This document shows positions 2,372-55,710 of a DNA stretch of 64,000 nt, piece after piece. The stretch lies in IMG/VR virus record IMGVR_UViG_2706796742_000001, positions 1-64,000 of that record; one strand, written 5' to 3'. The position numbers and the translations under genes are program-made. The notes under the pieces were generated by a model. The model was given only the letters and a program-made list of their open reading frames with translations, was not told where the DNA came from and made no database searches. Positions within the stretch are counted from its first letter, which is position 1. Each line of letters opens with the position of its first letter. The DNA comes from a virus (Duplodnaviria > Heunggongvirae > Uroviricota > Caudoviricetes).

Positions 2372-3481
2372 ATGACTACTAAAACTAAAGCACAGATTGA
2401 CGCAGAAATCTACAAACTGGTTAAAGAAGGTAAGCTGACTAAAACAGCTATTGCACAGAAGTTCAATACTTCAACCCGTTCAGTTGGTCGTGCTGTAGAG
2501 CGTCATGAAGCAACCTTAAAAGGTAAGAAAAAGGTAGCTTCTAAACCAGCTAAGAAGACTTTGAAGCAAGTTGCTAAGTCAGTTAAAAAGAAAGCTGGCA
2601 AACCAGTTGAAAAGGTTGTTAAAGAGGCTGTACAAAAGGCTCCGGTAAATAAACTACACGAAGCTATGCAGAATGGTGACCGGATTGAGTATATGATTAC
2701 TGGCGATTCTGTTATCATGACTTTCGGTGCAGATTCTGAAATCGTTGAATCTACCCATCCGAACTACAAAGAAATCGTAATGGCTGTTGTAGGTGGTGAG
2801 TACAAGAAAGCTTTCGAACTGATGAACATTCGTAAGTCTATCGAAAACTTCACTCAGGGTGCTATCACAATCAAAGGTGATAAGTTATTCTACGGTGCTG
2901 TTGAAATGCGTTCTACTCTGGTTGACCGTATCCTTCACATGATGAAGACTGGCGATAAAGGTTTTGAACGACTTGTAATGTTCTTCGAAAAACTGATGGA
3001 AAACCCATCTAAAGACTCTGTAGAACAACTTTGGGGGTTTGTATCTCACCTTGATGTTGAAATTGATGAAGAAGGCTACATCATTGGTTGGAAGAAAGTC
3101 TCTACTCGTGAAGGTAAGCTGGTTGACTCCCACACCCACAGAGTACCTAATGATTTGGGTAACATTGTAGAAATGCCACGTTGGATGGTTGATAACAACC
3201 GTAACGTAACTTGTTCTCAAGGTCTTCATGTTGGTGCTTGGGATTATGTTCGTTACTTCTCAGGTGATACCATCCTGAAGGTTCGTGTCCATCCACGAGA
3301 TGTTGTATCTGTTCCAACTGATTACAACGATATGAAGATGCGTTCATCCCGTTATGAAGTTGCAGCAATCGTTGATAATCAACGTAAAGTGCTGAAAGTA
3401 TGGGATGGTAAGACTGAAGCTTTGCATGTCATCGTTGGCACTGCTGGAGAACTCATCTCCCAACGTAAACGTGAAATCTAA
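2372..3481 (+). CDS. putative rIIB-like protein (by position after rIIA-like gene); basic Lys-rich linker
   Basis: 369-aa ORF directly downstream of the rIIA-like ORF; preceded by a TTGACA-N18-TAGAAT element and followed by a hairpin plus T-run. Confidence 0.35.
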   Translation: MTTKTKAQIDAEIYKLVKEGKLTKTAIAQKFNTSTRSVGRAVERHEATLKGKKKVASKPAKKTLKQVAKSVKKKAGKPVEKVVKEAVQKAPVNKLHEAMQNGDRIEYMITGDSVIMTFGADSEIVESTHPNYKEIVMAVVGGEYKKAFELMNIRKSIENFTQGAITIKGDKLFYGAVEMRSTLVDRILHMMKTGDKGFERLVMFFEKLMENPSKDSVEQLWGFVSHLDVEIDEEGYIIGWKKVSTREGKLVDSHTHRVPNDLGNIVEMPRWMVDNNRNVTCSQGLHVGAWDYVRYFSGDTILKVRVHPRDVVSVPTDYNDMKMRSSRYEVAAIVDNQRKVLKVWDGKTEALHVIVGTAGELISQRKREI

Positions 3482-3497
3482 TAAGTAATTTCTTAAA

Positions 3498-3522
3498 AGG
3501 CTGCTTCGGCGGCCTTTTTTAT
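3498..3522 (+). terminator. rho-independent terminator
   Basis: Hairpin AGGCTGC-TTCG-GCGGCCT followed by TTTTTT. Confidence 0.6.
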
Positions 3523-3581
3523 TTGTATTTTGTGCAGAGTGCTGTATAATTGTGGTCACGATAAACTAAACAGGAGAACCA

Positions 3582-4130
3582 ATGAAGAAGTTGATTCTAG
3601 GTTTGTGCTTAATGTTTACAGCACACTTATCTTATGCAGTTGACTGCCCAGAGCTATCAATTAGCCAAAAAGTAAACATGTTAAAAGCTTACCAGTATGG
3701 TGAGAATAATATGGGCAAAGGCTGGGGTATTACTCTAGCTGCTATAGCCTTACAAGAGTCAGAGTTAGGTCTGAATATGGAGAATAAAAAGACCCATGAC
3801 TATGGTATCTTCCAGAATCACTTGAAGACTGTTGTAAAGCGTAACAAAATTAGTCCTAATGTAGCTAAAAAGAAACTCTTAAAAGATTTTGACTATGCTG
3901 CAAAGGAAACACACAAAGAGCTTGAGTTTTGGACGAAGGTACATGGTCACCCAAAGTCAAAGAAGACTTTACAAAAAGTTTTAGCGTCATATAATGCTGG
4001 GTATTCGTACAAAATCCCTAAAGCTAAGAAATACTCTCAAGATGTCTACAACAATATGAAAGTTATTGCTCAATGTGAATTTGCAACAAACATTTCTAAG
4101 GTAAACCATGAAAAAATTAAGAAGGTTTGA
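3582..4130 (+). CDS. secreted lytic-transglycosylase-like (SLT-domain) protein
   Basis: N-terminal signal peptide MKKLILGLCLMFTAHLSYA; catalytic-Glu-like motif LQESELG and SLT-like YNAGYSY motif; RBS caggag upstream. Confidence 0.5.
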   Translation: MKKLILGLCLMFTAHLSYAVDCPELSISQKVNMLKAYQYGENNMGKGWGITLAAIALQESELGLNMENKKTHDYGIFQNHLKTVVKRNKISPNVAKKKLLKDFDYAAKETHKELEFWTKVHGHPKSKKTLQKVLASYNAGYSYKIPKAKKYSQDVYNNMKVIAQCEFATNISKVNHEKIKKV

Positions 4131-4803
4131 TGAAGTACTGTGTCATGCTTATGACTTACATCCTCATGAGTTAGGTCTTGATTCCTGTGTATGGACCCCA
4201 GAACAGTGCAGAGATTTTGAAGATACTGCAAGAGAGGTTGTATGTTCACTTGAAGAGTTCCACACATCAGAATCAATTGTGAACGTTGTGGACAAAGAGA
4301 CTGGACAATCTATAGGTGTAAGACGTGACAGTTTAGTCATAGTCAATAAAGACCTTGTAGAAAAAGGTAACCTCATCCTAGCAGATATTGATGGTGTTCT
4401 TACAAATTTTAATCACGAAGATTACTCAACAGAGTTGACTGACGGGTCATTTTCACAGTACACTAATCTTCTTGACTCTGTAAGAGCAAAACCAACATAT
4501 ATTTTCAATATCATTGATGCAATTGCTAATCATGCTGCTATCGGACTCTTGACAGCAAGAGGTGAAACTCAGAGAATACCTACTGAGATGTTCTTGAGGC
4601 ACAATATAGAACATGATTACATGCTTTTTATGCGTGGTTTTGGGACTAATTCTTTAAGTGCAGAAAGTTTAAAAGTCAGGATGATTCAGTCTTGCATTCT
4701 TCCTTACTTTAATATAGTATGTTTTATAGAAGATACAGAGAAGAATGTTCAGAAGGTTAACAGAATCCTTCCACACATCAAAACCATGTTAGTTAAACAT
4801 TGA
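4108..4803 (+). CDS. HAD-superfamily phosphatase-like protein (nucleotidase or polynucleotide 3'-phosphatase type)
   Basis: HAD motif I ILADIDGVLT, later GLLTARGE and FIEDTEKN acidic motif; overlaps upstream ORF by 23 nt. Confidence 0.45.
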   Translation: MKKLRRFDEVLCHAYDLHPHELGLDSCVWTPEQCRDFEDTAREVVCSLEEFHTSESIVNVVDKETGQSIGVRRDSLVIVNKDLVEKGNLILADIDGVLTNFNHEDYSTELTDGSFSQYTNLLDSVRAKPTYIFNIIDAIANHAAIGLLTARGETQRIPTEMFLRHNIEHDYMLFMRGFGTNSLSAESLKVRMIQSCILPYFNIVCFIEDTEKNVQKVNRILPHIKTMLVKH

Positions 4804-4813
4804 GAGAAAACTT

Positions 4814-5278
4814 ATGAACAATATCATTACGGTAGCACTGGACGTTACGGAAAACAAATCTGAAGTAGTTCGTAACATTATCAAGAGCAACTTTGAGGGT
4901 AAAATCTTCCGTGCTGTCAATGTAAAAGCAGACGGTAATATCCGAGAGTATCGTGCTCTTCTGAATGTTAAGAAACACGTCAAAGGTGCTGGTTCAACGA
5001 CTGCACACAAAGAAAACCTGATGACTATCTATGATATGGGCATGGCTTCAGAGTTAGGTGCTGAAGGTATCGTTAAAGAAGGTGCTCCGTATCGCTCTTT
5101 CAATCTGGAAACTGCTCTTATGCTTTCCTTTACAAGTGGTTCTAAAACAACTACTTATCTCTTTACTGATGCTGCAACGGTATCTGCTATTAAGGATAGC
5201 ACTGTCAAAGCTGGGGTAGCTGCTGCTGCAAAAGCTTCTTCGATGGCTGCAAATGTCCTTGCTAAAGTCCTCAGTTAA
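4814..5278 (+). CDS. hypothetical protein
   Basis: 154-aa ORF with RBS; followed by GGCTCCTTCGGGAGCC hairpin plus T-run. Confidence 0.5.
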   Translation: MNNIITVALDVTENKSEVVRNIIKSNFEGKIFRAVNVKADGNIREYRALLNVKKHVKGAGSTTAHKENLMTIYDMGMASELGAEGIVKEGAPYRSFNLETALMLSFTSGSKTTTYLFTDAATVSAIKDSTVKAGVAAAAKASSMAANVLAKVLS

Positions 5279-5290
5279 GGTTAAGATACA

Positions 5291-5312
5291 GGCTCCTTCG
5301 GGAGCCTTTTTA
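5291..5312 (+). terminator. rho-independent terminator
   Basis: GGCTCC-TTCG-GGAGCC followed by TTTTT. Confidence 0.65.
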
Positions 5313-5329
5313 AATTTCAAGGAGTATTA

Positions 5330-6214
5330 ATGAAGCCGATGTTCAAATATCTTGGTGGTAAAACAAGAATATTAAAAGAGTATGAGCGTTTAGGTGTCTT
5401 TCCAGACAACTGTAAAAACTTCTATGACCTGTTTTCAGGTGGTGGTTCAGTAGCTATCTGGGCTTATAACAGATACCCAGAGGCAAAAGTGTTTATTAAT
5501 GAGATAAATAAACATATTATAGGTCTTTACACAACTTTCAGAAATGACTATGAAAACTTCATGGAAGAGTTTGAGTACTTATCAAAGAGGTACTTAGCCT
5601 TACCTATGCAGGAAGAGTATGCCGTGAAAGGCCAGCGTCATAACCGTCTACGCTATAAGATGTATTACAGTGTAAGAGAGGAACTTCTTTTGCTTGGTGA
5701 AGAAGGAGCATATGACTACAGGTACTATGCCAGACAGTTTTTCCTTCAAAAATTAAGTTTTGGTGGTGTATGGCAGACTACTAAAGAGATGAAAGGTCAC
5801 TATGCAACACCTTGTGGGTATTTGCTGGAAGAAGAGATTTTCTTCACAAAAACTAAAGAATCACTATCCGAGTTTTACAGTTTTATCACCGATGAAAGGG
5901 TAATACTTAGCAGTGAACCTTATGACAGGGTTGACATAAAACATGGAGAAGGCACAGTTATTTACTGTGACCCCCCATATATCAACACCAACCAGAAATA
6001 TGGTGCAAAGTTTGATATTGAGATGTCTGTAAAATTATGCAAAGATATGATTTCTTGGGGGGAGTTAGGCTCTAAAGTTTTGATGTCAAACTCTCAGTGG
6101 GATGGATGGGCAAACCTAATTCCTGAAAATTTTAACTTGACAGAGGTTAGCCATTCATACACAATACATGCACAGAGAAGCAAAGATATTAACGAAGTAA
6201 TTATTCACAACTAA
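5330..6214 (+). CDS. dam: DNA N6-adenine methyltransferase, Dam family
   Basis: Dam-like N-terminus FKYLGGK, SAM-binding DLFSGGGS, catalytic DPPY motif. Confidence 0.7.
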   Translation: MKPMFKYLGGKTRILKEYERLGVFPDNCKNFYDLFSGGGSVAIWAYNRYPEAKVFINEINKHIIGLYTTFRNDYENFMEEFEYLSKRYLALPMQEEYAVKGQRHNRLRYKMYYSVREELLLLGEEGAYDYRYYARQFFLQKLSFGGVWQTTKEMKGHYATPCGYLLEEEIFFTKTKESLSEFYSFITDERVILSSEPYDRVDIKHGEGTVIYCDPPYINTNQKYGAKFDIEMSVKLCKDMISWGELGSKVLMSNSQWDGWANLIPENFNLTEVSHSYTIHAQRSKDINEVIIHN

Positions 6215-6225
6215 GGTATCAAGTT

Positions 6226-7038
6226 ATGGCAAACAGCATCAATGTAGCACTGAATGGTAAGGTTGTTAAAATTCACACTAAGATTATCAGTGTCGAGGAT
6301 TTCCTTAATGAAAAACGTTACAAAGAAAACCCTCGTCAACGAAATACACTTAAGCGTCTGAAAAGCAAACACCTTAATGGTGACGTATCACCAGACCAAA
6401 CAGTAGTCCATGTGGCTAAGTTCGGTAGTTCACTGTTCATCATTGATGGTCACTCACGTCGAGAGGCATGGAAAGTTGGTAACCTGACACGACCAGAAAA
6501 CTTGATTGCAGTTATATACCATGTGAACTCCATATTGGATGTCACAGATTTGTACACTCATTTTGACTCTGAGTTAGCAAGAGAAAAACCTTCAGAAGTT
6601 TATTACGGAAATATGAAGATGATTTCTTTCAACCCAGAGTCAGAACTGATGAAAGCATCTTGGGCAACTGCTATTAAGTATGTTGCTGCATACTACGGTG
6701 TACAACAGGTATCTAACACTGAAACAGTTAAATACCTTAATGACTTTAAAAATGAGCTGGAACAAATTGATTCTCTTGAAGTACAGCTTAAAGGTGTAGT
6801 AAACGCAAAACGGAAATATTCTTCTGGGATTCGCGCAGCAATGTTAATTACTCTACGCCTATATGGTGATGCTGCATTTTCCTTTTGGGAAGACTATAAT
6901 GACTACTGTGAAGGTATGTCTAACAAATATGTTACAGAGTTATACCAACTGGCATTACAAGCTGGTCGCGGAGCACAGGCTGATAAGTTGTTGATGAATC
7001 AAGTGATTTCACTTGTCAACTATTACAGTCAAGAATAA
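6226..7038 (+). CDS. ParB-like nuclease-domain protein
   Basis: ParB/DUF262-type motif IIDGHSRREAW in the N-terminal half; 270-aa ORF; terminator hairpin downstream. Confidence 0.45.
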   Translation: MANSINVALNGKVVKIHTKIISVEDFLNEKRYKENPRQRNTLKRLKSKHLNGDVSPDQTVVHVAKFGSSLFIIDGHSRREAWKVGNLTRPENLIAVIYHVNSILDVTDLYTHFDSELAREKPSEVYYGNMKMISFNPESELMKASWATAIKYVAAYYGVQQVSNTETVKYLNDFKNELEQIDSLEVQLKGVVNAKRKYSSGIRAAMLITLRLYGDAAFSFWEDYNDYCEGMSNKYVTELYQLALQAGRGAQADKLLMNQVISLVNYYSQE

Positions 7039-7044
7039 TACACA

Positions 7045-7066
7045 GGCTCCTTCGGGAGCCTTTTTC
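7045..7066 (+). terminator. rho-independent terminator (same hairpin as at 5291)
   Basis: GGCTCC-TTCG-GGAGCC followed by TTTTT. Confidence 0.65.
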
Positions 7067-7084
7067 ATTTCAGGAGGTTGTTAA

Positions 7085-7432
7085 ATGACATTTAAAGAGT
7101 TCTGTCAAGCTACTTTCATAATTGTTTTCTTAGTTGGGGCAGGTGTCTGGGGAGGATACTCCTACAGAGACTACCAAGTTGCTGAAGCTGAGCTAAATAA
7201 TGAGAAACTGATAAGTGTCGCTAAAGATGCTTATCAGGAAGGTTTAGTCACACTCAGCACTAATTACAAAAATGATTTGAAAGACGTGCTTGCTAAGAAT
7301 AAGCATACAAAAGAGGTACTAACATATGAAAAAACTAAGCCAGAGTTTTATAATGTTTGTGTTACTGATAATTATGTCAGGGTGTTCAACGAACAAAGTG
7401 AGCAGTACATTCAAAAACTCCCAAGTAAGTGA
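7085..7432 (+). CDS. i-spanin-like protein (N-terminal transmembrane helix, periplasmic helical domain)
   Basis: TM segment FIIVFLVGAGVWGGYSY near N-terminus; 3' end overlapped out of frame by a lipoprotein ORF. Confidence 0.4.
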   Translation: MTFKEFCQATFIIVFLVGAGVWGGYSYRDYQVAEAELNNEKLISVAKDAYQEGLVTLSTNYKNDLKDVLAKNKHTKEVLTYEKTKPEFYNVCVTDNYVRVFNEQSEQYIQKLPSK

Positions 7433-7595
7433 GAGTGACAAGTACACTCAAGAAGAATCAAGATTCACTGTCAAAGGCAACACTGGTAGTGATGTGGCAG
7501 CAGCCCTTGAGTTTTATCGTGATGGTTTTTACCAGTGCACAATCAAAGCTAATAACCTTATTGACATGATTTTATTAGGGAACAAACAGCAATGA
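7326..7595 (+). CDS. o-spanin-like outer-membrane lipoprotein
   Basis: Lipoprotein signal with lipobox IMSGC; RBS gagg upstream; starts inside the preceding ORF in a different frame. Confidence 0.4.
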   Translation: MKKLSQSFIMFVLLIIMSGCSTNKVSSTFKNSQVSESDKYTQEESRFTVKGNTGSDVAAALEFYRDGFYQCTIKANNLIDMILLGNKQQ

Positions 7596-7861
7596 CAGAG
7601 AACGAAGACACTTTCTATGTAGAAGGGTACTTACTGCTACCACGACCAAAAGAAACTTATATGCGTGTTGATTTCTCACCAACCATTATGGACAACGTGA
7701 TGTGTCATATCTTTATGCAAGGTGTCACAGCACAGCTTAAGCATGTTGGTAAAGAGTGCAAAATAAAGGTTGACACTCATCCAGAAATCAAAGAGAATCA
7801 CTACACATGGTTCTTACCAGACTCTAAAGAAATCTTAGCAGTTCTTAAAACGAGGAAGTAA
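7592..7861 (+). CDS. hypothetical protein
   Basis: 89-aa ORF, start overlaps previous stop. Confidence 0.45.
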   Translation: MTENEDTFYVEGYLLLPRPKETYMRVDFSPTIMDNVMCHIFMQGVTAQLKHVGKECKIKVDTHPEIKENHYTWFLPDSKEILAVLKTRK

Positions 7862-7863
7862 CT

Positions 7864-8190
7864 ATGCAGATTAATGGAAGAGACTTTGTAGCAGTTTACT
7901 ACGAGAAAGATAAAGAAGTTGGCGTAGCACAAATATCTTATGGTAATGGTAAGTGGTTGTATGGGACAATCGCAGTAGTCGGGACAAGGAGTGATACAAA
8001 AACTTTTAAAGATTGTGTTGACCTTCTTGAAGAATCCATCCACAATCGTTGGTGTCTGATATGGATGACTGACAACGAAGTGATAGAACGCTTCAAAAAG
8101 ATTGGTATCAACATTGATAGCATTGAGCATGTTGATTTATATGAGCTAACTGAGAAGGTAAACTATGAAAGTAATACTAGCCAGAGATAA
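7864..8190 (+). CDS. hypothetical protein
   Basis: 108-aa ORF, tightly packed. Confidence 0.45.
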   Translation: MQINGRDFVAVYYEKDKEVGVAQISYGNGKWLYGTIAVVGTRSDTKTFKDCVDLLEESIHNRWCLIWMTDNEVIERFKKIGINIDSIEHVDLYELTEKVNYESNTSQR

Positions 8191-8392
8191 AAAGACACGG
8201 AAAATTATCCGGTCAGCAGTATCTATTGGAAGAAATGAAGTGATTCCTTTTACAGCAAATGATGTGATAATCTACAGGAAAAAATTAGCATTCAGTTATT
8301 GCTTACGTGGCTTTATCTCCCAGCCATTGGAAGACTTTAAAAGTCGTTGTGGTAAAGGTATCATCATTCAAGAGGCAATTATCAATGGCTGA
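8165..8392 (+). CDS. hypothetical protein
   Basis: 75-aa ORF with aaggt RBS, overlaps neighbours. Confidence 0.35.
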   Translation: MKVILARDKKTRKIIRSAVSIGRNEVIPFTANDVIIYRKKLAFSYCLRGFISQPLEDFKSRCGKGIIIQEAIING

Positions 8393-8585
8393 CCTCTGCA
8401 AAGACTGTTCTATCGAAATGTTCGGACGTGATACAGGTGACTTAAAAGGTCTCATCACTGAGGATGATTTTAAAGCTGGCTATGCAATGCCAGTAATCTG
8501 TGAAGGTTGTGGATGTATCTGGGTAGACCACGAAGGACAACGTGTAAAACCTTCAGAAGATAAAGAATCTTGGGAGAGATGCTAA
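8385..8585 (+). CDS. small Cys-rich (zinc-ribbon-like) protein
   Basis: Internal start MADLCKDCS; paired CxxC motifs (CKDC, CEGCGC). Confidence 0.4.
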   Translation: MADLCKDCSIEMFGRDTGDLKGLITEDDFKAGYAMPVICEGCGCIWVDHEGQRVKPSEDKESWERC

Positions 8586-9371
8586 ATGGGTATTGTAAAA
8601 ATTATCAATGGTGATATCTTTGCCGCATTTGATAAAAGTAAGTTTGATGTCATTGGTCATGGCTGTAACTGTATGAATTTCATGGGTGCAGGTATTGCAG
8701 CAACTATTTCTAAGCGTTATCCAAAAGTATATGATACTGATACAGAAGTTTACCTGTTTGCAGGTGGTATTCGCCACAAACCATGTGAAAACCTACTAGG
8801 TAATTTCTCTGTAACACGCTTAAAACAAGGCCGTGTAGCTAACCTTTACACCCAACTTCATACTGGTAAAGATGCCCGATACAGTGCTTTAGAGTCATCT
8901 TTGAAGCAACTTAACAGATACTGTGAAGTTAATAAGTTGAAGAAAGTTGGTTTACCTATGATTGGTGCAGGTATCGGTGGACTAGACCCTCAAGCCGTCA
9001 CAGTTATCATTAATCAGGTGATGAAGAGCGTAGATGTTTACCTGTATGTCTACGAGACAGAGATGTACAACGAGTTACACTCAGGTTGGAAGAACTATTG
9101 CGAACCGGAATACTTTGCAGGTGTAGTAACGTTCACAGACAATACAGTTACCCTCTTCAGACGAAGAAAAGGTAAGATACATCAAAGTAACCCTCCGGTT
9201 GAAAAGATGTCCCTAAGTAACGCTCTAGTTACCCACCTGTCGAAGAGCAATCACAGAATTGCCGTGACATTTGGTAGCGATGCAGACACCTACATCTATG
9301 CAAGAACTGATGAGGATATCGAGACAGTTTTCTCATCACCGGAAGTTACCTTCTTAGACGCAAAGAACTAA
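8586..9371 (+). CDS. macro-domain protein (ADP-ribose binding or hydrolase-like) with C-terminal extension
   Basis: N-terminal pattern GDIF...DVIGHGCNCMNFMGAGIA and later LPMIGAGIGG resemble macro-domain glycine motifs. Confidence 0.5.
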   Translation: MGIVKIINGDIFAAFDKSKFDVIGHGCNCMNFMGAGIAATISKRYPKVYDTDTEVYLFAGGIRHKPCENLLGNFSVTRLKQGRVANLYTQLHTGKDARYSALESSLKQLNRYCEVNKLKKVGLPMIGAGIGGLDPQAVTVIINQVMKSVDVYLYVYETEMYNELHSGWKNYCEPEYFAGVVTFTDNTVTLFRRRKGKIHQSNPPVEKMSLSNALVTHLSKSNHRIAVTFGSDADTYIYARTDEDIETVFSSPEVTFLDAKN

Positions 9372-9439
9372 GAAACCCTGTAGAATATTCACAATAGACT
9401 AAGCCTTTCTTATCTGGTAAATTTTTCAGGTAAGGAGGG

Positions 9440-9640
9440 CTTTTTCATTTCAGGATTGTGCAGGTAGATTTCTGTAGAGAAATCTGTAGAGAGAATTTTG
9501 AACTCCAAAGAGAAAATCCATTTTCAAACTGTGCAGGTAATCTCCAAAGAGCTTTTTCATTTTCAAAACGTGCAGATAAAAATCAGGTCGGGCAAGAAAA
9601 ATCATTTTAGAATTGTGCAGGTAGGTGGGTGCAGGTGGGG
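9440..9640 (+). repeat. iteron-like array: four direct repeats of about 23 nt ending in TGTGCAGGTA plus degenerate copies
   Basis: CTTTTTCATTTCAGGATTGTGCAGGTA, TCCATTTTCAAACTGTGCAGGTA, CTTTTTCATTTTCAAAACGTGCAGATA, ATCATTTTAGAATTGTGCAGGTA, then GGTGGGTGCAGGTGGGG. Confidence 0.6.
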
Positions 9641-9799
9641 ATGTCGCCATTTCTCACAAGACTACCACATCTGAAAAGAAAAGTCAACAGAAAAATTTGT
9701 AGCGGATTGAAAAATAATTCTTGATTGTAGTTCTGTTTTGTGGTAGTCGCGTGCGCCCGTTTCATTACATTTTTGCCAAAAATATTTTTAAAATTTTTC

Positions 9800-9828
9800 T
9801 TGACTCCTCGAACGGGGTTATCTAGTAT
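9800..9828 (+). promoter_or_regulatory. sigma70-like early promoter with A/T-rich upstream region
   Basis: TTGACT-N17-TAGTAT preceded by AAAAATATTTTTAAAATTTTTC. Confidence 0.5.
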
Positions 9829-9838
9829 TTGCATCAAC

Positions 9839-9859
9839 GGGGAGGGAATGACCTTCCCC
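9839..9859 (+). repeat. class-B early cassette hairpin, copy 1
   Basis: GGGGAGGGAATGACCTTCCCC followed by conserved ..TAAACTAGGAGATTCAAAAATG leader. Confidence 0.6.
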
Positions 9860-9893
9860 ACTAAGTAAAACCCTTAAACTAGGAGATTCAAAA

Positions 9894-10085
9894 ATGGCAT
9901 CAAGAAAAATCAAAGTTGGCGACGAGGTTAACGTAAAACATGAATACTCTTACAAAATGTTAACTATTCGCTCTTACAAGGTTTATCAGGTGGAAGCTAT
10001 CCACGAAGATGGAACATTTTCACTAAAAGGATATAGCGAACGTTTCCCTGCTGAATTGTTCGAAAAATGGAGCACTAAAAAATGA
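9894..10085 (+). CDS. hypothetical early protein
   Basis: Small ORF preceded by class-B cassette hairpin and GGAG RBS. Confidence 0.5.
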   Translation: MASRKIKVGDEVNVKHEYSYKMLTIRSYKVYQVEAIHEDGTFSLKGYSERFPAELFEKWSTKK

Positions 10086-10288
10086 TTTACAGCCGTGAAT
10101 TGATGGTCACAACTAACGTTAACACAAAGGTAAAACGTTTTTATATGCAAGTATGCGGCGCATGGCGTAGAATATCAGAATCTGACTATTGCAACTATGT
10201 AGAAACGGCTATTAATTCTAATTGCTATCTTACAAAGAATACAAAGCGACATATAAAACAGACAGCGGTTTACTATTACGATATATAA
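10082..10288 (+). CDS. hypothetical early protein
   Basis: ATGA start-stop overlap with upstream ORF. Confidence 0.45.
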   Translation: MIYSRELMVTTNVNTKVKRFYMQVCGAWRRISESDYCNYVETAINSNCYLTKNTKRHIKQTAVYYYDI

Positions 10289-10302
10289 AAAGTACTTTAC
10301 AA

Positions 10303-10331
10303 GGGGCTTAAAAGCTGATATCTTAAGCCCC
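10303..10331 (+). repeat. class-A early cassette hairpin, copy 1
   Basis: GGGGCTTAAAAGCTGATATCTTAAGCCCC preceded by AAGTACTTTACAA, followed by conserved leader with GGAG. Confidence 0.6.
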
Positions 10332-10378
10332 AGATAAAAAGCTTTATCACATTAACCTTAAACTAGGAGATTCAAAAA

Positions 10379-10759
10379 ATGGCTTATCGTGCACCGAAAT
10401 TCATCAACAAAGACAACTTCCGCAACGCACTGGAGAAGTCACTTGATGAAAAATTTAACGGCAAATTGATTGTTGTTCACGCATTCAATTTTAAGTATGA
10501 TATTAACGGGAATAAAATCAACCATTACACGGCAACCATGTTAGATGGTGCGCTTTCAAGTGAAAAAGCCATTATCAATGCGCTTGCTGGACGTGGTAAA
10601 AACCTGATAAAATGCAATAAGAGACGTTATCAGGGCGGCGCATATGGTTACGATGATGCTGTTTATCATCTTGAAAATATGGGCTATTCAGTGGAAAAAG
10701 CTGGAGTGTCTCAAATAATCGGCAGTGACGGCTATGTGACAATTTTCAAAATTAACTGA
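10379..10759 (+). CDS. hypothetical early protein
   Basis: Preceded by class-A cassette and GGAG RBS. Confidence 0.5.
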   Translation: MAYRAPKFINKDNFRNALEKSLDEKFNGKLIVVHAFNFKYDINGNKINHYTATMLDGALSSEKAIINALAGRGKNLIKCNKRRYQGGAYGYDDAVYHLENMGYSVEKAGVSQIIGSDGYVTIFKIN

Positions 10760-11228: not shown

Positions 11229-11525
11229 ATGAAATTATCAAATAAAGTTAGGGAAAATCTAAGCAAATTACTCAACAAAATTGATTTTATCGAGACCTCA
11301 AGAAATACTCATGAGGTGATGGAATGGATACACGGCAAAATAAAAGGCCGTCGTGTAGTAATTTGCTTATGGAATAGCTGCAGGGAGTATAAGAAACCTG
11401 TTTTGCAAATTAATGTTTATGATGATACTTTTAAAAGCCCAGTAAAGTCTAAAAGTGACTTATTAGAATCTTATGAGATAACTGTAAGTGGCAAGGTATC
11501 ACGTAAAGAGGGAACACCATGCTAA
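11229..11525 (+). CDS. hypothetical early protein
   Basis: Preceded by class-A cassette. Confidence 0.5.
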   Translation: MKLSNKVRENLSKLLNKIDFIETSRNTHEVMEWIHGKIKGRRVVICLWNSCREYKKPVLQINVYDDTFKSPVKSKSDLLESYEITVSGKVSRKEGTPC

Positions 11526-11851
11526 TGACTGGCATTACTGCAATCATAGCCATTATAGCGCTATATAAGGCATATAAAGCCTATAATCTGGCAAGTAAGG
11601 CAATCACGCAGCAGGTTAATAATAGCCTTGTAGAAAGCTTTCTAGGGCGTTTAAGTGATGAGCAAATAAAGCGGCTAGAAATGAGCTTCAGATTTCAATC
11701 AAAAACTTATCAAATCAGCGACATTTTCAAAGAGGATTTTCAGCTTGTCGATGATTATAACGCCCTGATAAATGCTTTAAATATCAGTGACTTAAAAGAC
11801 TATTACACTGTAATTGTTCAAGAAATGAGCAAACGAAAAAATTCCTCTTGA
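11519..11851 (+). CDS. hypothetical early protein with N-terminal hydrophobic segment
   Basis: Start overlaps upstream stop; TM-like ITAIIAIIALY. Confidence 0.45.
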   Translation: MLMTGITAIIAIIALYKAYKAYNLASKAITQQVNNSLVESFLGRLSDEQIKRLEMSFRFQSKTYQISDIFKEDFQLVDDYNALINALNISDLKDYYTVIVQEMSKRKNSS

Positions 11852-19480: not shown

Positions 19481-20014
19481 CTATAATTGTAGGTTGCATT
19501 CTTTACTTACCTCTTCAAGTTTAACCTCAGAGTCCTTAAGTCGTTTCTTATGAACTCTGAATCTCATTAGTGAGATGATGATACCAACTAAAGGAACAGC
19601 ATACAAGTACCAAACATCATATACCTTTGCAGTAATCTGTGTAATGGTCAAATCTTGAGCTATGGAACTGATTGCTGATACTGCTAGTAATGTTGCTAAG
19701 AAAAATGCCAGTACCATTACCGTACTTAAACAACCTCTGGCATGGTGTTCATGCTTAATACACTTGTTCTTTTCGTCAACAACCCTGTTGTAGTCATTTG
19801 TAAAGTCTCTGTAGAAGGCTTTCAAGTATTCTTGACTGTAGCCTTCAAAGCAACCTGTACCATACCAATAATCACCACCAAAATGTGCTATGATGCCAGT
19901 ATCACCATTTGGTTTGGTTACTCTCAAAGAAGTATGATGACGAGTATCCTGATAATCTATCTTATATCTTTCTTCGTAAATCATTTTCCAACCCCTCTCA
20001 ATCGTTTGTCCCAC
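19481..20014 (-). CDS. membrane protein (two predicted TM helices)
   Basis: Hydrophobic segments VMVLAFFLATLLAVSAI and YAVPLVGIIISLM. Confidence 0.45.
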   Translation of the reverse strand: MGQTIERGWKMIYEERYKIDYQDTRHHTSLRVTKPNGDTGIIAHFGGDYWYGTGCFEGYSQEYLKAFYRDFTNDYNRVVDEKNKCIKHEHHARGCLSTVMVLAFFLATLLAVSAISSIAQDLTITQITAKVYDVWYLYAVPLVGIIISLMRFRVHKKRLKDSEVKLEEVSKECNLQL

Positions 20015-22346: not shown

Positions 22347-22811
22347 TTACTTTGGATATACACTGTCAAGATAAATGTCAGCTTCCATTCTACGTCTGTT
22401 TTTCAGGCCGTTTGAAGTGACCTTCTTACCCTTGACTGTGACCTTGTTCCACCACTGCATAGCTTCTGCACAACCTACCTTATTACCAGCATTGTGGCGC
22501 TTGATAAATGTAGAATCCTGCATAGCTGTGATACCGATGTTGTATGTTTCACTTACAAGTGCATCGAATTCATTCTGAGAAGTTGGAACCTTGATAGCTT
22601 TATTCACTACTGCAACAAACTTCTCAACATCTGCAAGAAGATACTGTTCAGCTTGCTCGGCAGTGATTTTCATACCCATCTTAACAGGTTTTCCGTCAAT
22701 ACGGATTGTACCATACCCAATTGTTGGGATTCCGGCAGAGTCTTCGTAAGCCTCTAACTTCAGACCTTCGAAGAACTTAATAGCCTCTAAACCTTTTCTT
22801 GAGAGTTGCAT
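22347..22811 (-). CDS. endolysin, T4-lysozyme-like (GH24)
   Basis: Motif EGLKLEAYEDSAGIPTIGYGT with catalytic Glu/Asp spacing typical of T4-type lysozymes; terminator downstream on minus strand. Confidence 0.7.
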   Translation of the reverse strand: MQLSRKGLEAIKFFEGLKLEAYEDSAGIPTIGYGTIRIDGKPVKMGMKITAEQAEQYLLADVEKFVAVVNKAIKVPTSQNEFDALVSETYNIGITAMQDSTFIKRHNAGNKVGCAEAMQWWNKVTVKGKKVTSNGLKNRRRMEADIYLDSVYPK

Positions 22812-55338: not shown

Positions 55339-55710
55339 ATGAAGTGGCTAGAGGAAGCTTTTAAAAATAATATTGGTGCAATTGTAGTTGGTATTTTTAG
55401 TGTTATTGGGACATTTACCACGATGCAGGTTTCAAGTGGTAAACAAGAAGTGTCTGTCACAACGAAATTACAGCAGTTAGATAGTTATTCAAAAAGTAAC
55501 TACTCAGCTATTCGTGATTTACAATCTGACATGAGACTACTCCAGCTAGGGATGGAGAACCAGAAAGTCCAGTTAGAGAATGTTAAGGGTGAGAACGCAA
55601 AACTTACCAAAACCCTTGATAAATTCTCTGATAGCGTGAACAATCTGGCTCAATCAGTATCAGCCCTCCAAGCTATTACTGAGAAGAACACAAAGAATAC
55701 TGAAAAATAA
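55339..55710 (+). CDS. membrane-anchored coiled-coil protein
   Basis: TM segment IGAIVVGIFSVIGTF then heptad-like Gln/Leu-rich region. Confidence 0.4.
   Translation: MKWLEEAFKNNIGAIVVGIFSVIGTFTTMQVSSGKQEVSVTTKLQQLDSYSKSNYSAIRDLQSDMRLLQLGMENQKVQLENVKGENAKLTKTLDKFSDSVNNLAQSVSALQAITEKNTKNTEK

Follow-up and report, generated by a model that had tools for sequence, protein, structure and literature searches.

In phage lambda, the spanin genes Rz and Rz1 encode a type II inner-membrane protein and a small outer-membrane lipoprotein in different frames of shared DNA. Each product has a periplasmic cysteine, and the two are presumed to form a complex that spans the periplasm and fuses the membranes. 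Rz1 is wholly embedded in Rz, the pair ends a holin-endolysin-spanin cassette, Rz has two coiled coils, and Rz1 is proline-rich and depends on that region. The LysB/LysC pair of P2, known here from the paper of Kongari 2018 alone, belongs to the "overlapped" architecture class and lies in a lysis cassette (PMC6139136). In T4, PseT.3 (117 aa) and PseT.2 (annotated with 99 aa, given as 83 aa in Kongari 2018, PMC6139136) are encoded by "separated" genes with a 4-nt overlap, which stand far from the endolysin gene e (PMC6139136) and the holin gene t, in an early/middle block that also contains, adjacent to them, pseT, the gene for polynucleotide kinase. For Felix O1, the catalogue SpaninDB lists, as Felix01, an "ovl" pair consisting of a 115-aa i-spanin (5330-5678) and an 89-aa o-spanin (5571-5841) with a 70-aa periplasmic part, overlapping by 107 nt, and Kongari 2018 assigned this pair to the "JH2 family" (PMC6139136), a sequence family defined by similarity to the spanins of Felix01, JH2, Moogle, or phiEco32. 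The i-spanins of JH2 and of Kuravirus were placed in one group in that study, and the o-spanins in separate families (PMC6139136). The pair of the Kuravirus Paul (CPT_Paul_036/035), a phiEco32-like podophage, is also overlapped (116 nt), has a terminator before it and a macro-domain gene after it, and is likewise located away from the holin and endolysin genes.

Here we analyzed a pair of overlapping genes in a 64,000-nt stretch of viral DNA, referred to as the window (table 1). The window is Felixounavirus DNA; its identity to Shigella phage Tf and to Escherichia phage tootiki is 96-97%, and in many GenBank records of relatives at this level of identity the pair is annotated as i-spanin and o-spanin. 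The predicted proteins are 98% (i-spanin) and 94% (o-spanin) identical to those of Felix O1, the i-spanin differing at 2 residues, and the i-spanin is 99% identical to that of JH2. Felix O1 ORF 6 and ORF 7 have the same lengths, overlap, +1 frame relationship, upstream terminator, and upstream Shine-Dalgarno sequence; in contrast to Felix O1, the window has a 1,754-bp cassette, with a Dam methyltransferase gene and a 270-aa ORF, between ORF 5 and the spanin genes, which therefore have shifted coordinates but are themselves unchanged. Thus, we concluded that the pair is very probably a two-component spanin, encoded by a Felix O1-like myophage (Felixounavirus) and belonging to the overlapped JH2 family; we infer its spanin function from topology, architecture, and selection. 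The pair is already known, as it is represented in the published spanin catalogue, and its separation from the endolysin gene has also been published. In a search of published work, we found no complementation of lambda RzRz1, knockout, or localisation for any JH2-family member.

Table 1. Coordinates of the predicted spanin genes and of associated features in the window.
Feature	Position	Strand	Details
rIIA/rIIB-type ORFs	1-2292, 2372-3481		upstream of the spanin pair
Weakly SLT-like ORF	3582-4130		PF01464 E=0.0055, misses the Pfam cutoff; upstream of the spanin pair
Intrinsic terminator hairpin AGGCTCCTTCGGGAGCCT with T-run	7044..7066	+	terminator scan; directly 5' of the spanin genes
i-spanin Shine-Dalgarno AGGAGG	7072..7077	+	7 nt 5' of the ATG
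Predicted i-spanin gene	7085..7432	+	ATG, 115 aa
o-spanin Shine-Dalgarno AAGAGG	7311..7316	+	inside the i-spanin CDS, 9 nt 5' of the ATG
Predicted o-spanin gene	7326..7595	+	ATG, 89 aa
Dual-coding overlap, 107 nt	7326..7432	+	i-spanin residues 81-115 / o-spanin residues 1-36
Tightly packed co-oriented genes	7592..9371	+	ORF list; first starts at an ATGA overlapping the o-spanin stop
Strong intrinsic terminator (Felix O1 t13)	9401..9452	+	terminator scan; next one downstream of the spanin genes
Endolysin, T4-lysozyme-type muramidase, 154 aa	22347..22811	-	PF00959 E=1.6e-40; phrog_7 endolysin E=1.8e-57

The 115-aa protein has a single hydrophobic stretch, FCQATFIIVFLVGAGVWGG (residues 6-24, Kyte-Doolittle 1.75), which by hydropathy would serve as the one transmembrane domain of an inner-membrane protein, and the acidic flank (net -3) on its C-terminal side fits an N-in/C-out orientation. 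The remaining periplasmic domain of about 90 aa is predicted to be helical; an AlphaFold2 model, of low confidence (pLDDT 62; shallow alignment), likewise shows a mostly helical C-terminal part. Among related loci, Cys92 and the C-terminus KLPSK are invariant. The match of this protein to PHROG 1152 has E=1e-41; the name of that family, "Rz-like spanin", is a functional label. The AGGAG motif of the gene is also given in the SpaninDB record for Felix01. The Rz and Rz1 families were absent for both proteins in a Pfam scan at E<=0.1, and an NCBIfam scan of both returned weak lipoprotein-signal matches only.

The 89-aa protein begins with MKKLSQSFIMFVLLIIMSG (residues 1-19, the predicted signal peptide), followed by the predicted lipid-modified Cys20 (encoded at 7383-7385) of the lipobox I-M-S-G-C. 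When the PROSITE lipoprotein pattern PS51257 was run against all Met-start ORFs of 50 aa or more in the six frames of the window, 489 in number, this ORF was the only match, so that no alternative o-spanin with this pattern was found in the 64 kb. The residue at -3 of the lipobox is Met in most members, which lies outside the strict consensus [LVI][ASTVI][GAS]C; the variants LISGC and TISGC occur in relatives, and MVSG is the lipobox given in SpaninDB for phage FE44. The enterobacterial Lol sorting rule counts the Ser at +2 among the non-retention residues, and both Cys20 and this Ser are invariant in 33/33 related loci, which gives the candidate o-spanin a lipobox followed by a residue other than Asp. 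The mature protein of 70 aa has no proline, its Cys71 is invariant, and its C-terminal segment, ALEFYRDG.Y.C..KANNLIDMIL, is conserved; the AlphaFold2 model of the o-spanin is again of low confidence (pLDDT 60; shallow alignment). Its PHROG matches were phrog_4180 (E=1e-50) and a weak one, phrog_456 "Rz-like spanin" (8e-5). The initial annotation had described the first ORF as an N-terminally anchored membrane protein with a helical periplasmic region and the second as a lipoprotein with lipobox IMSGC, in an arrangement typical of i-spanin/o-spanin pairs. The first description agrees with the one N-terminal hydrophobic segment and with helix prediction in a low-confidence model, the second with the PS51257 match and with the retention of Cys20 and Ser +2 in all of the 33 loci, and the pairing with the phrog_1152 match, the GenBank annotations, the Felix01 geometry in SpaninDB, and the selection on both frames described below.

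The o-spanin gene begins inside the i-spanin gene in the +1 frame, and we considered whether the 115-aa frame could be the sole gene, with the 89-aa frame a chance open frame and its lipobox-like N-terminus accidental. The 89-aa frame is omitted or truncated in many public gene calls, about nine in ten of which start at or past Met17 and so lose the signal; in one Felixounavirus, at least one comparative paper found the i-spanin alone and concluded that the o-spanin was missing (PMC8300805); Felix O1 ORF 7 was outside the set covered by RT-PCR; and frames of such length are common, since the window has 79 ATG-ORFs of at least 89 aa and length by itself is therefore not significant. The evidence for the 89-aa gene is thus its lipobox and its conservation rather than its length. 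Our large protein search returned relatives that were all at least 53% identical, and tblastn against phage genomes added relatives from Kuravirus and Kolesnikvirus. A distant match of the o-spanin also occurs in Klebsiella phage phi_270, whose record carries no annotation. In 33/33 related loci, both frames are open with the same geometry, the genes being overlapped by 107 nt in the +1 frame, and a Shine-Dalgarno sequence (AAGAGG or AAGGAG) stands at the o-spanin position; the geometry is kept even in L031, the locus that diverges most (i-spanin 53% identical), and the 89-aa frame is still open at 69% nucleotide identity. Nucleotide diversity was 0.061 in the overlap compared with 0.134 and 0.162 in the single-coding flanks. 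Third-position diversity peaked in the respective frame of each single-coding part, at 0.235 for the i-spanin gene and 0.329 for the o-spanin gene, whereas in the overlap diversity was flat across codon positions, with neither frame peaking, and pS dropped to 0.08-0.29. The third-position peaks, together with the fall of diversity by more than half in the overlap, indicated that both frames are under selection. Against relatives of Felixounavirus/Mooglevirus level, pN/pS was 0.10-0.26 in the non-overlapping part of the i-spanin gene and 0.12-0.18 in that of the o-spanin gene, but 1.6-3.0 when the 163 nt of the o-only part were read in the i-frame. Thus, each of the two frames is maintained by purifying selection, the overlap having the signature of dual coding, and this removes the possibility raised with the initial annotation, that only one of the two frames is translated. 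This signature, with the invariant Cys20, the conserved ribosome-binding site, and a lipoprotein homologue in Kuravirus, makes a chance frame exceedingly improbable, and it suggests that both frames are expressed, as in spanin systems. The start codon at 7326, as given in the initial annotation, is the correct one and preferable to that of many public records, as it keeps the signal peptide and the conserved ribosome-binding site and agrees with SpaninDB. In addition, the two invariant cysteines, C92 of the i-spanin and C71 of the o-spanin, provide each predicted periplasmic domain with a cysteine; at least one periplasmic cysteine for homotypic disulfides is found in 507/528 catalogued spanin systems (PMC6139136).

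We compared the pair with the more distant spanins. It shares with Rz/Rz1 the predicted type II inner-membrane protein and small outer-membrane lipoprotein, the use of two frames of the same DNA, the cysteine in each protein, and the presumed complex and membrane fusion; it differs from Rz/Rz1 in being overlapped rather than embedded and scattered rather than part of a cassette, in its proline-free mature o-spanin, and in the i-spanin, for which SpaninDB predicts no coiled coil in Felix01. With LysB/LysC of P2 it has the architecture class in common, but the two fall into different sequence families of Kongari and the window pair is not in a lysis cassette. With PseT.3/PseT.2 of T4 it shares similar protein sizes, the topology logic, and the location, although the window pair is overlapped and its order relative to the polynucleotide kinase gene is reversed. 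Homology to PseT.3/PseT.2 was rejected (hhalign probability 0.4% for the i-spanin and about 5%, namely 5.4%, for the o-spanin). The Kuravirus Paul differs from the window phage in virion type and genome; its i-spanin is 35% identical to that of the window (E=9e-17), and the o-spanins of the two, 31% identical, are detectably related by BLASTP (E=4e-11). The GenBank record of Paul carries a TMpred note for the i-spanin homologue and a note of a LipoP SpII score of 18.0 for the o-spanin homologue.

The spanin genes lie within a block of T4-early-like genes that includes rIIA, rIIB, a vs.1-like gene, a gene for polynucleotide kinase located 2.3 kb before the pair, and a macro-domain gene. The terminator directly in front of the pair is Felix O1 terminator t5, given as ggctccttcgggagcctttttcattt in Table 2 of the Felix O1 paper, and only 23 nt separate the t5-type hairpin from the i-spanin ATG, which leaves no room for a promoter. 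Sigma-70-like promoters, sought from 5000 to 10500, were found at chance level (14 sites compared with 14.5 expected), with none in the 23-nt gap. The genes that follow the o-spanin gene match PHROG families 4391, 4453, and 6082, all of unknown function, and the run is closed by the macro-domain protein (8586-9371; PF01661, E=1.7e-7). These downstream genes probably share a transcription unit with the spanin genes, and the t13 terminator is its likely 3' boundary. Such a setting might point to an envelope-spanning, spanin-like complex whose role differs from or goes beyond that of a spanin, such as the timing of lysis or, together with rII-type functions, its inhibition, given the closeness of rIIA/rIIB, the apparent co-transcription with small genes of unknown function and the macro-domain gene, the recurrence of the spanin-macro adjacency in Kuravirus, and the missing proline-rich and coiled-coil features of lambda Rz1 and Rz. 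We consider such a role highly unlikely, as no positive support for it was found, as the lysis genes of Felix O1-like phages are not grouped by function in their gene neighbourhood, and as the o-spanins of the T4 and Jersey families are also without proline-rich regions (PMC6139136).

The endolysin, the counterpart of Felix O1 gp35, lacks both a signal sequence and a TMD and is encoded on the opposite strand about 14.7 kb (14.75) from the spanin pair, which is thus outside a canonical holin-endolysin-spanin cassette. When a holin was sought in the window among small TMD-bearing ORFs and with PHROGs, no match to a holin family was obtained, all of these ORFs being of unknown function. The initial annotation had placed the endolysin gene about 15 kb from the pair, and this identification and distance held; it had also implied that the location is odd, which was overstated, because in Felix O1-like phages the lysis genes have been described as "scattered", with the spanins apart from the endolysin, "as with T4" (PMC4319497, PMC3185647). 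The rIIA-like and SLT-like genes that it had noted near the pair are both present upstream, the latter with a weak, sub-cutoff match. Its assignment of the pair to an early region needs a qualification, since published RT-PCR, in which a transcript of Felix O1 ORF 6, the i-spanin orthologue, was detected, put this ORF in the 25-min class together with the lysin ORF 35.

The same neighbourhood could also suit a non-lysis membrane protein and lipoprotein for superinfection exclusion or receptor masking, as with T5 Llp, T4 Imm/Sp, and TP-J34 Ltp, and the lipoprotein has a sub-threshold profile match to PDB 4eqq, a "putative host cell surface-exposed lipoprotein". That match (E=0.026), the best in a PDB sequence search that found no solved relative, is not significant, and a PADLOC scan of the pair gave no match. 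By RT-PCR the orthologue falls into the 25-min class of the lysin and not into that of the 5-min genes, and the T4 spanins occupy this kind of neighbourhood too, beside pseT. A Gram-negative phage normally needs a spanin, and the window has no other candidate by lipoprotein pattern. The overlapped combination of a type II membrane protein and a small outer-membrane lipoprotein is a spanin signature, here kept across 33 loci and also present in podophages of an unrelated group. Taken together, these observations argue for a spanin pair and make an exclusion function very improbable.

For the spanin pair, we proposed a mechanism drawn from the paradigms of lambda Rz/Rz1 and T4 PseT.3/PseT.2, by which localisation, complex formation, disulfides, and membrane fusion would be expected by analogy. 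The N-terminal helix of the 115-aa protein would anchor it in the inner membrane, its helical domain of about 90 aa extending into the periplasm, whereas the 89-aa protein would be exported, lipid-modified at Cys20, and cleaved by signal peptidase II; because its +2 residue is Ser, the Lol pathway would carry it to the outer membrane, into the inner leaflet. The periplasmic domains may bind through their C-terminal parts, and each protein would probably form covalent homodimers through its single conserved periplasmic cysteine. The resulting complexes would cross the periplasm through the peptidoglycan mesh and stay inert until the holin-released endolysin strips this mesh; their collapse would then fuse the inner membrane with the outer one, and the last barrier to phage release would be gone. 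A further reading, which we regard as rather doubtful, is that JH2-family spanins bridge or fuse the membranes by a structural mechanism unlike that of lambda Rz/Rz1, and/or that the family travels between the unrelated Ounavirinae myophages and Kuravirus podophages as a macro-domain-linked module expressed apart from other lysis genes. The suggestion of a different mechanism is based on the proline-free o-spanin, on the long segment conserved at its C-terminus (modelled, with low confidence, as a helix), and on the i-spanin without a predicted coiled coil.

Because Salmonella typing and biocontrol make use of Felix O1-like phages, a correct inventory of their lysis genes is useful. The discovery value of the present analysis is small; its practical value for annotation lies in the correct start of the o-spanin gene.

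The ORF list and the sequence confirmed the two overlapping, same-strand ORFs that the initial annotation had read as an i-spanin/o-spanin pair; the o-spanin ORF starts inside the i-spanin ORF in the +1 frame, with a 107-nt overlap (see table). The first product, described as an N-terminally anchored membrane protein, indeed has one hydrophobic segment, at residues 6-24, with an acidic flank after it. The second, described as a lipoprotein, begins with MKKLSQSFIMFVLLIIMSG directly followed by C and satisfies the PROSITE lipoprotein pattern PS51257; of the 489 Met-start ORFs with 50 aa or more in the six frames of the 64-kb window, no other did so. The enterobacterial Lol sorting rule is an established guide to lipoprotein destination from residue +2; thus, the Ser at +2 of the mature o-spanin predicts sorting to the outer membrane. 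A membrane protein and a lipoprotein might also constitute a superinfection-exclusion pair, which we considered very improbable; a spanin-like complex with another role was judged equally improbable. The spanin interpretation was supported by selection in both frames and by previous classifications. In particular, the first ORF matched PHROG 1152, "Rz-like spanin" (E=1e-41), and the pair is labelled i-spanin/o-spanin in many GenBank relatives.

The region was 96-97% identical to Felixounavirus genomes, e.g., Shigella phage Tf, Escherichia phage tootiki, and Salmonella phage HMD-P8. Up to ~5300, the window coordinates were those of Felix O1, with ORFs 3582-4130, 4108-4803, and 4814-5278 at identical positions in AF320576, and the Felix O1 counterparts of the pair lie at 5331-5678 and 5572-5841 (numbered ORF 6 and ORF 7 by Whichard et al. 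2010). Felix01 appears in the supplement of Kongari et al. (2018; PMC6139136) among the "overlapped" two-component spanins, with the same geometry: the genes share 107 nt, the i-spanin (5330-5678; 115 aa) differs from that of the window at two residues, and the o-spanin (5571-5841) has 89 aa. The "JH2" i-spanin family of that paper includes Felix01, JH2, Moogle, Mushroom, wV8, and others, as well as phiEco32-like phages, and Felix O1-like phages also form a "JH2" o-spanin family. Neither the feature nor its location is new; the analysis confirms the observation and supports its interpretation.

Coordinates of the spanin genes and of neighbouring or related features in the window
Feature	Position	Strand	Details
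SLT-like 182-aa protein	3582-4130		Sec-type signal peptide MKKLILGLCLMFTAHLSYA, followed by VD
Insertion relative to Felix O1	5272-7070		1,754 bp
45-nt direct repeat flanking insertion	5272-5316, 7026-7070		copies 84% identical
Dam-type methyltransferase	5330-6214		PF02086, E=2e-23
270-aa ORF	6226-7038		phrog_2615; IIDGHSRRE motif, ParB/DGQHR-like by eye
Intrinsic terminator	7044-7061	+	upstream of spanin genes, 23 nt to i-spanin ATG
AGGAGG (i-spanin)	7072-7077	+	7 nt upstream of ATG
i-spanin ORF	7085-7432	+	ATG start, 115 aa
AAGAGG (o-spanin)	7311-7316	+	9 nt upstream of ATG
o-spanin ORF	7326-7595	+	ATG start, 89 aa
Macro-domain protein	8586-9371	+	PF01661, E=1.7e-7; ~1 kb downstream of spanins
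Terminator	9401-9442		after macro-domain gene
Holin candidate	11519-11851	+	one or two predicted transmembrane segments; PHROG without known function
Holin candidate	19481-19984	-	as preceding
Endolysin	22347-22811	-	PF00959 lysozyme, E=1.6e-40; without signal sequence
Holin candidate	55339-55710	+	as other candidates

We compared 33 loci, representing 30 distinct sequences, in which the 511-nt region was complete. They comprised the window, GenBank records, 28 IMG/VR contigs, and two contigs from metagenomes, and one of them was a divergent relative with a 53% identical i-spanin in the family alignment. Both frames were open with the same +1 offset, and a Shine-Dalgarno sequence preceded the o-spanin ATG, in every locus; the overlap was 107 nt in 32 of them, and L002 has a shifted i-spanin stop and an overlap of 113 nt. 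The invariant residues included Cys20, Ser at +2, and Cys71 of the o-spanin and Cys92 of the i-spanin, and the lipobox was restricted to IMSGC, TMSGC, LMSGC, TISGC, LISGC, and SMSAC. Nucleotide diversity per site at positions 1, 2, and 3 was 0.099, 0.067, and 0.235 in the i-only part (i-frame; mean 0.134) and 0.093, 0.061, and 0.329 in the o-only part (o-frame; mean 0.162); the overlap (mean 0.061) lacked a third-position peak in either frame. Between the window and four Felixounavirus/Mooglevirus-level loci (L024, L025, L028, and L029), pN/pS was 0.10-0.26 in the correct frame versus 0.8-1.4 in the wrong frame for the i-only part, and 0.12-0.18 versus 1.6-3.0 for the o-only part. The same contrast was weaker against the most divergent locus, L031 (0.53 versus 0.67 and 0.28 versus 1.12, respectively). 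Taking the five comparisons together, the synonymous rate was 0.55-0.95 in the single-coding parts and dropped to 0.08-0.36 where the frames overlap. This pattern is the signature expected of two translated, constrained frames, and it removes the concern that one frame alone is translated. The length of the o-spanin ORF is unremarkable by itself, since 79 ATG-ORFs in the window are 89 aa or longer; however, a spurious second frame (89 aa) is contradicted by the selection on the o-frame, and we regarded it as extremely improbable.

The periplasmic region of the first ORF, described as helical, was also predicted to be so. AlphaFold2 models from shallow family alignments, although of low confidence, showed three helices beyond the membrane helix of the i-spanin (39-56, 65-79, and 85-111; pLDDT 62) and, for the o-spanin (pLDDT 60), a helical signal peptide, a disordered linker (20-53), and a helix (54-87) spanning the most conserved segment. 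These models agree with the published Felix01 tallies, which give 66% helix for the periplasmic i-spanin and a largely unstructured o-spanin (PMC6139136 supplement); that supplement records no predicted coiled coil. PDB sequence and profile searches found no solved structure of a relative.

Neither protein matched the Pfam Rz or Rz1 families in a Pfam scan, and profile comparisons with T4 PseT.3 and PseT.2 were negative (0.4% and 5% probability). Thus, judged from sequence, the pair appears to be a functional analogue of experimentally characterized spanins without detectable homology. Unlike lambda Rz1, the mature o-spanin contains no proline; a proline-rich region is also absent from T4-family o-spanins, and the pair, with one periplasmic cysteine per subunit, fits the commonest catalogued class, with two in total (PMC6139136). 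By analogy with the lambda and T4 paradigms, we infer that the i-spanin would be anchored in the inner membrane and the lipid-anchored o-spanin would reside in the outer membrane, that the two would associate via their C-terminal periplasmic parts, and that homodimers would probably be disulfide-linked via C92 and C71, respectively. The complexes would thread the peptidoglycan and, once the holin had released the endolysin and the wall was degraded, would fuse both membranes.

The endolysin was found where the initial annotation placed it, 14.75 kb (about 15 kb) from the spanins. The separation thus stands, but not as an oddity, because the unusual position is already published: according to the Felix O1 genome paper, the phage lacks holin-lysin cassettes, "as with coliphage T4" (PMC3185647), and Kongari et al. 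noted the same separation for T4 pseT.3/pseT.2 (PMC6139136). No holin was found among the TMD-bearing small ORFs, all in PHROG families of unknown function; the possible holins of the Felix O1 paper are gp79, gp116, gp118, gp119, and gp131 (PMC3185647). The nearby gene described as SLT-like exists, 3 kb from the pair, but its Pfam SLT match was below threshold (E=0.0055; 16.7 bits, cutoff 21.3), and AF320576 likens its product to the T4 vs-regB intergenic 20.7-kDa protein; from its sequence, this product would be exported and of muralytic type. T4 spanin genes are immediately beside pseT, a polynucleotide-kinase gene (4108-4803) lies 2.3 kb upstream of the window's spanins, and pseT lies 2 kb upstream of the i-spanin in Erwinia phage Tian; this neighbourhood recurs, with the T4 spanins not being sequence homologues.

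Directly upstream, an insertion relative to Felix O1 carrying the Dam-type methyltransferase displaces the pair, and each flanking repeat holds an identical terminator hairpin, AGGCTCCTTCGGGAGCCT, representing a duplicated terminator. Coverage of 6200-8200 reached 80% in only 12 of the 256 phage records that matched, which indicated that the cassette is variably present. Since the terminator leaves so little space before the i-spanin ATG, spanin transcription must proceed by read-through or from further upstream; the Felix O1 paper calls the passage of transcription through its many terminators unexplained (PMC3185647). The o-spanin stop overlaps the next start (ATGA, 7592-7595), and tightly packed genes follow up to the macro-domain gene. 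In Felix O1 RT-PCR, which covered only ORF 6 of the pair, the i-spanin was not in the 5-min class but in that with maximal expression at 25 min, together with lysin ORF 35 (PMC3185647).

Most public o-spanin gene calls were truncated. Among protein clusters P0009-P0024, approximately 363 member sequences fell in clusters of 68-80 aa and ~42 in those of 88-89 aa; the shorter calls begin at Met17 (MSGC...) or later and lose the signal peptide, encoded within 7326-7385, and tootiki and HMD-P8 also have GenBank starts downstream of 7326. The report of a Felixounavirus with "only the i-spanin" (PMC8300805) probably reflects the same artefact. Two records labelled Campylobacter phages A132 (MG065664.1) and A126 (MG065668.1) were 97% identical to the region, with a 100% identical i-spanin; their host label, Campylobacter jejuni, looks doubtful.

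By tblastn against phage genomes, the i-spanin was detected in 401 records and the o-spanin in 316, including Kolesnikvirus (Erwinia) and, at 30-37% identity, Kuravirus podophages. The homologous pair of Kuravirus phage Paul, for which the GenBank annotators noted a TMD by TMpred and an SpII score of 18.0 by LipoP, is likewise overlapped (116 nt) and follows a terminator; the holin and endolysin genes of Kuravirus are located away from the pair, with the morphogenesis genes (PMC7881722). Directly after the Paul pair is a macro-domain gene (L034, the Paul locus, 3439-3879; 24% identity to that of the window, E=9e-9), a spanin-macro linkage common to two unrelated phage groups. The o-spanins of Felix O1-like phages and Kuravirus were related (E=4e-11), whereas Kongari et al. 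(2018) assigned them to separate families; this kinship across both phage groups is a small refinement of those families.
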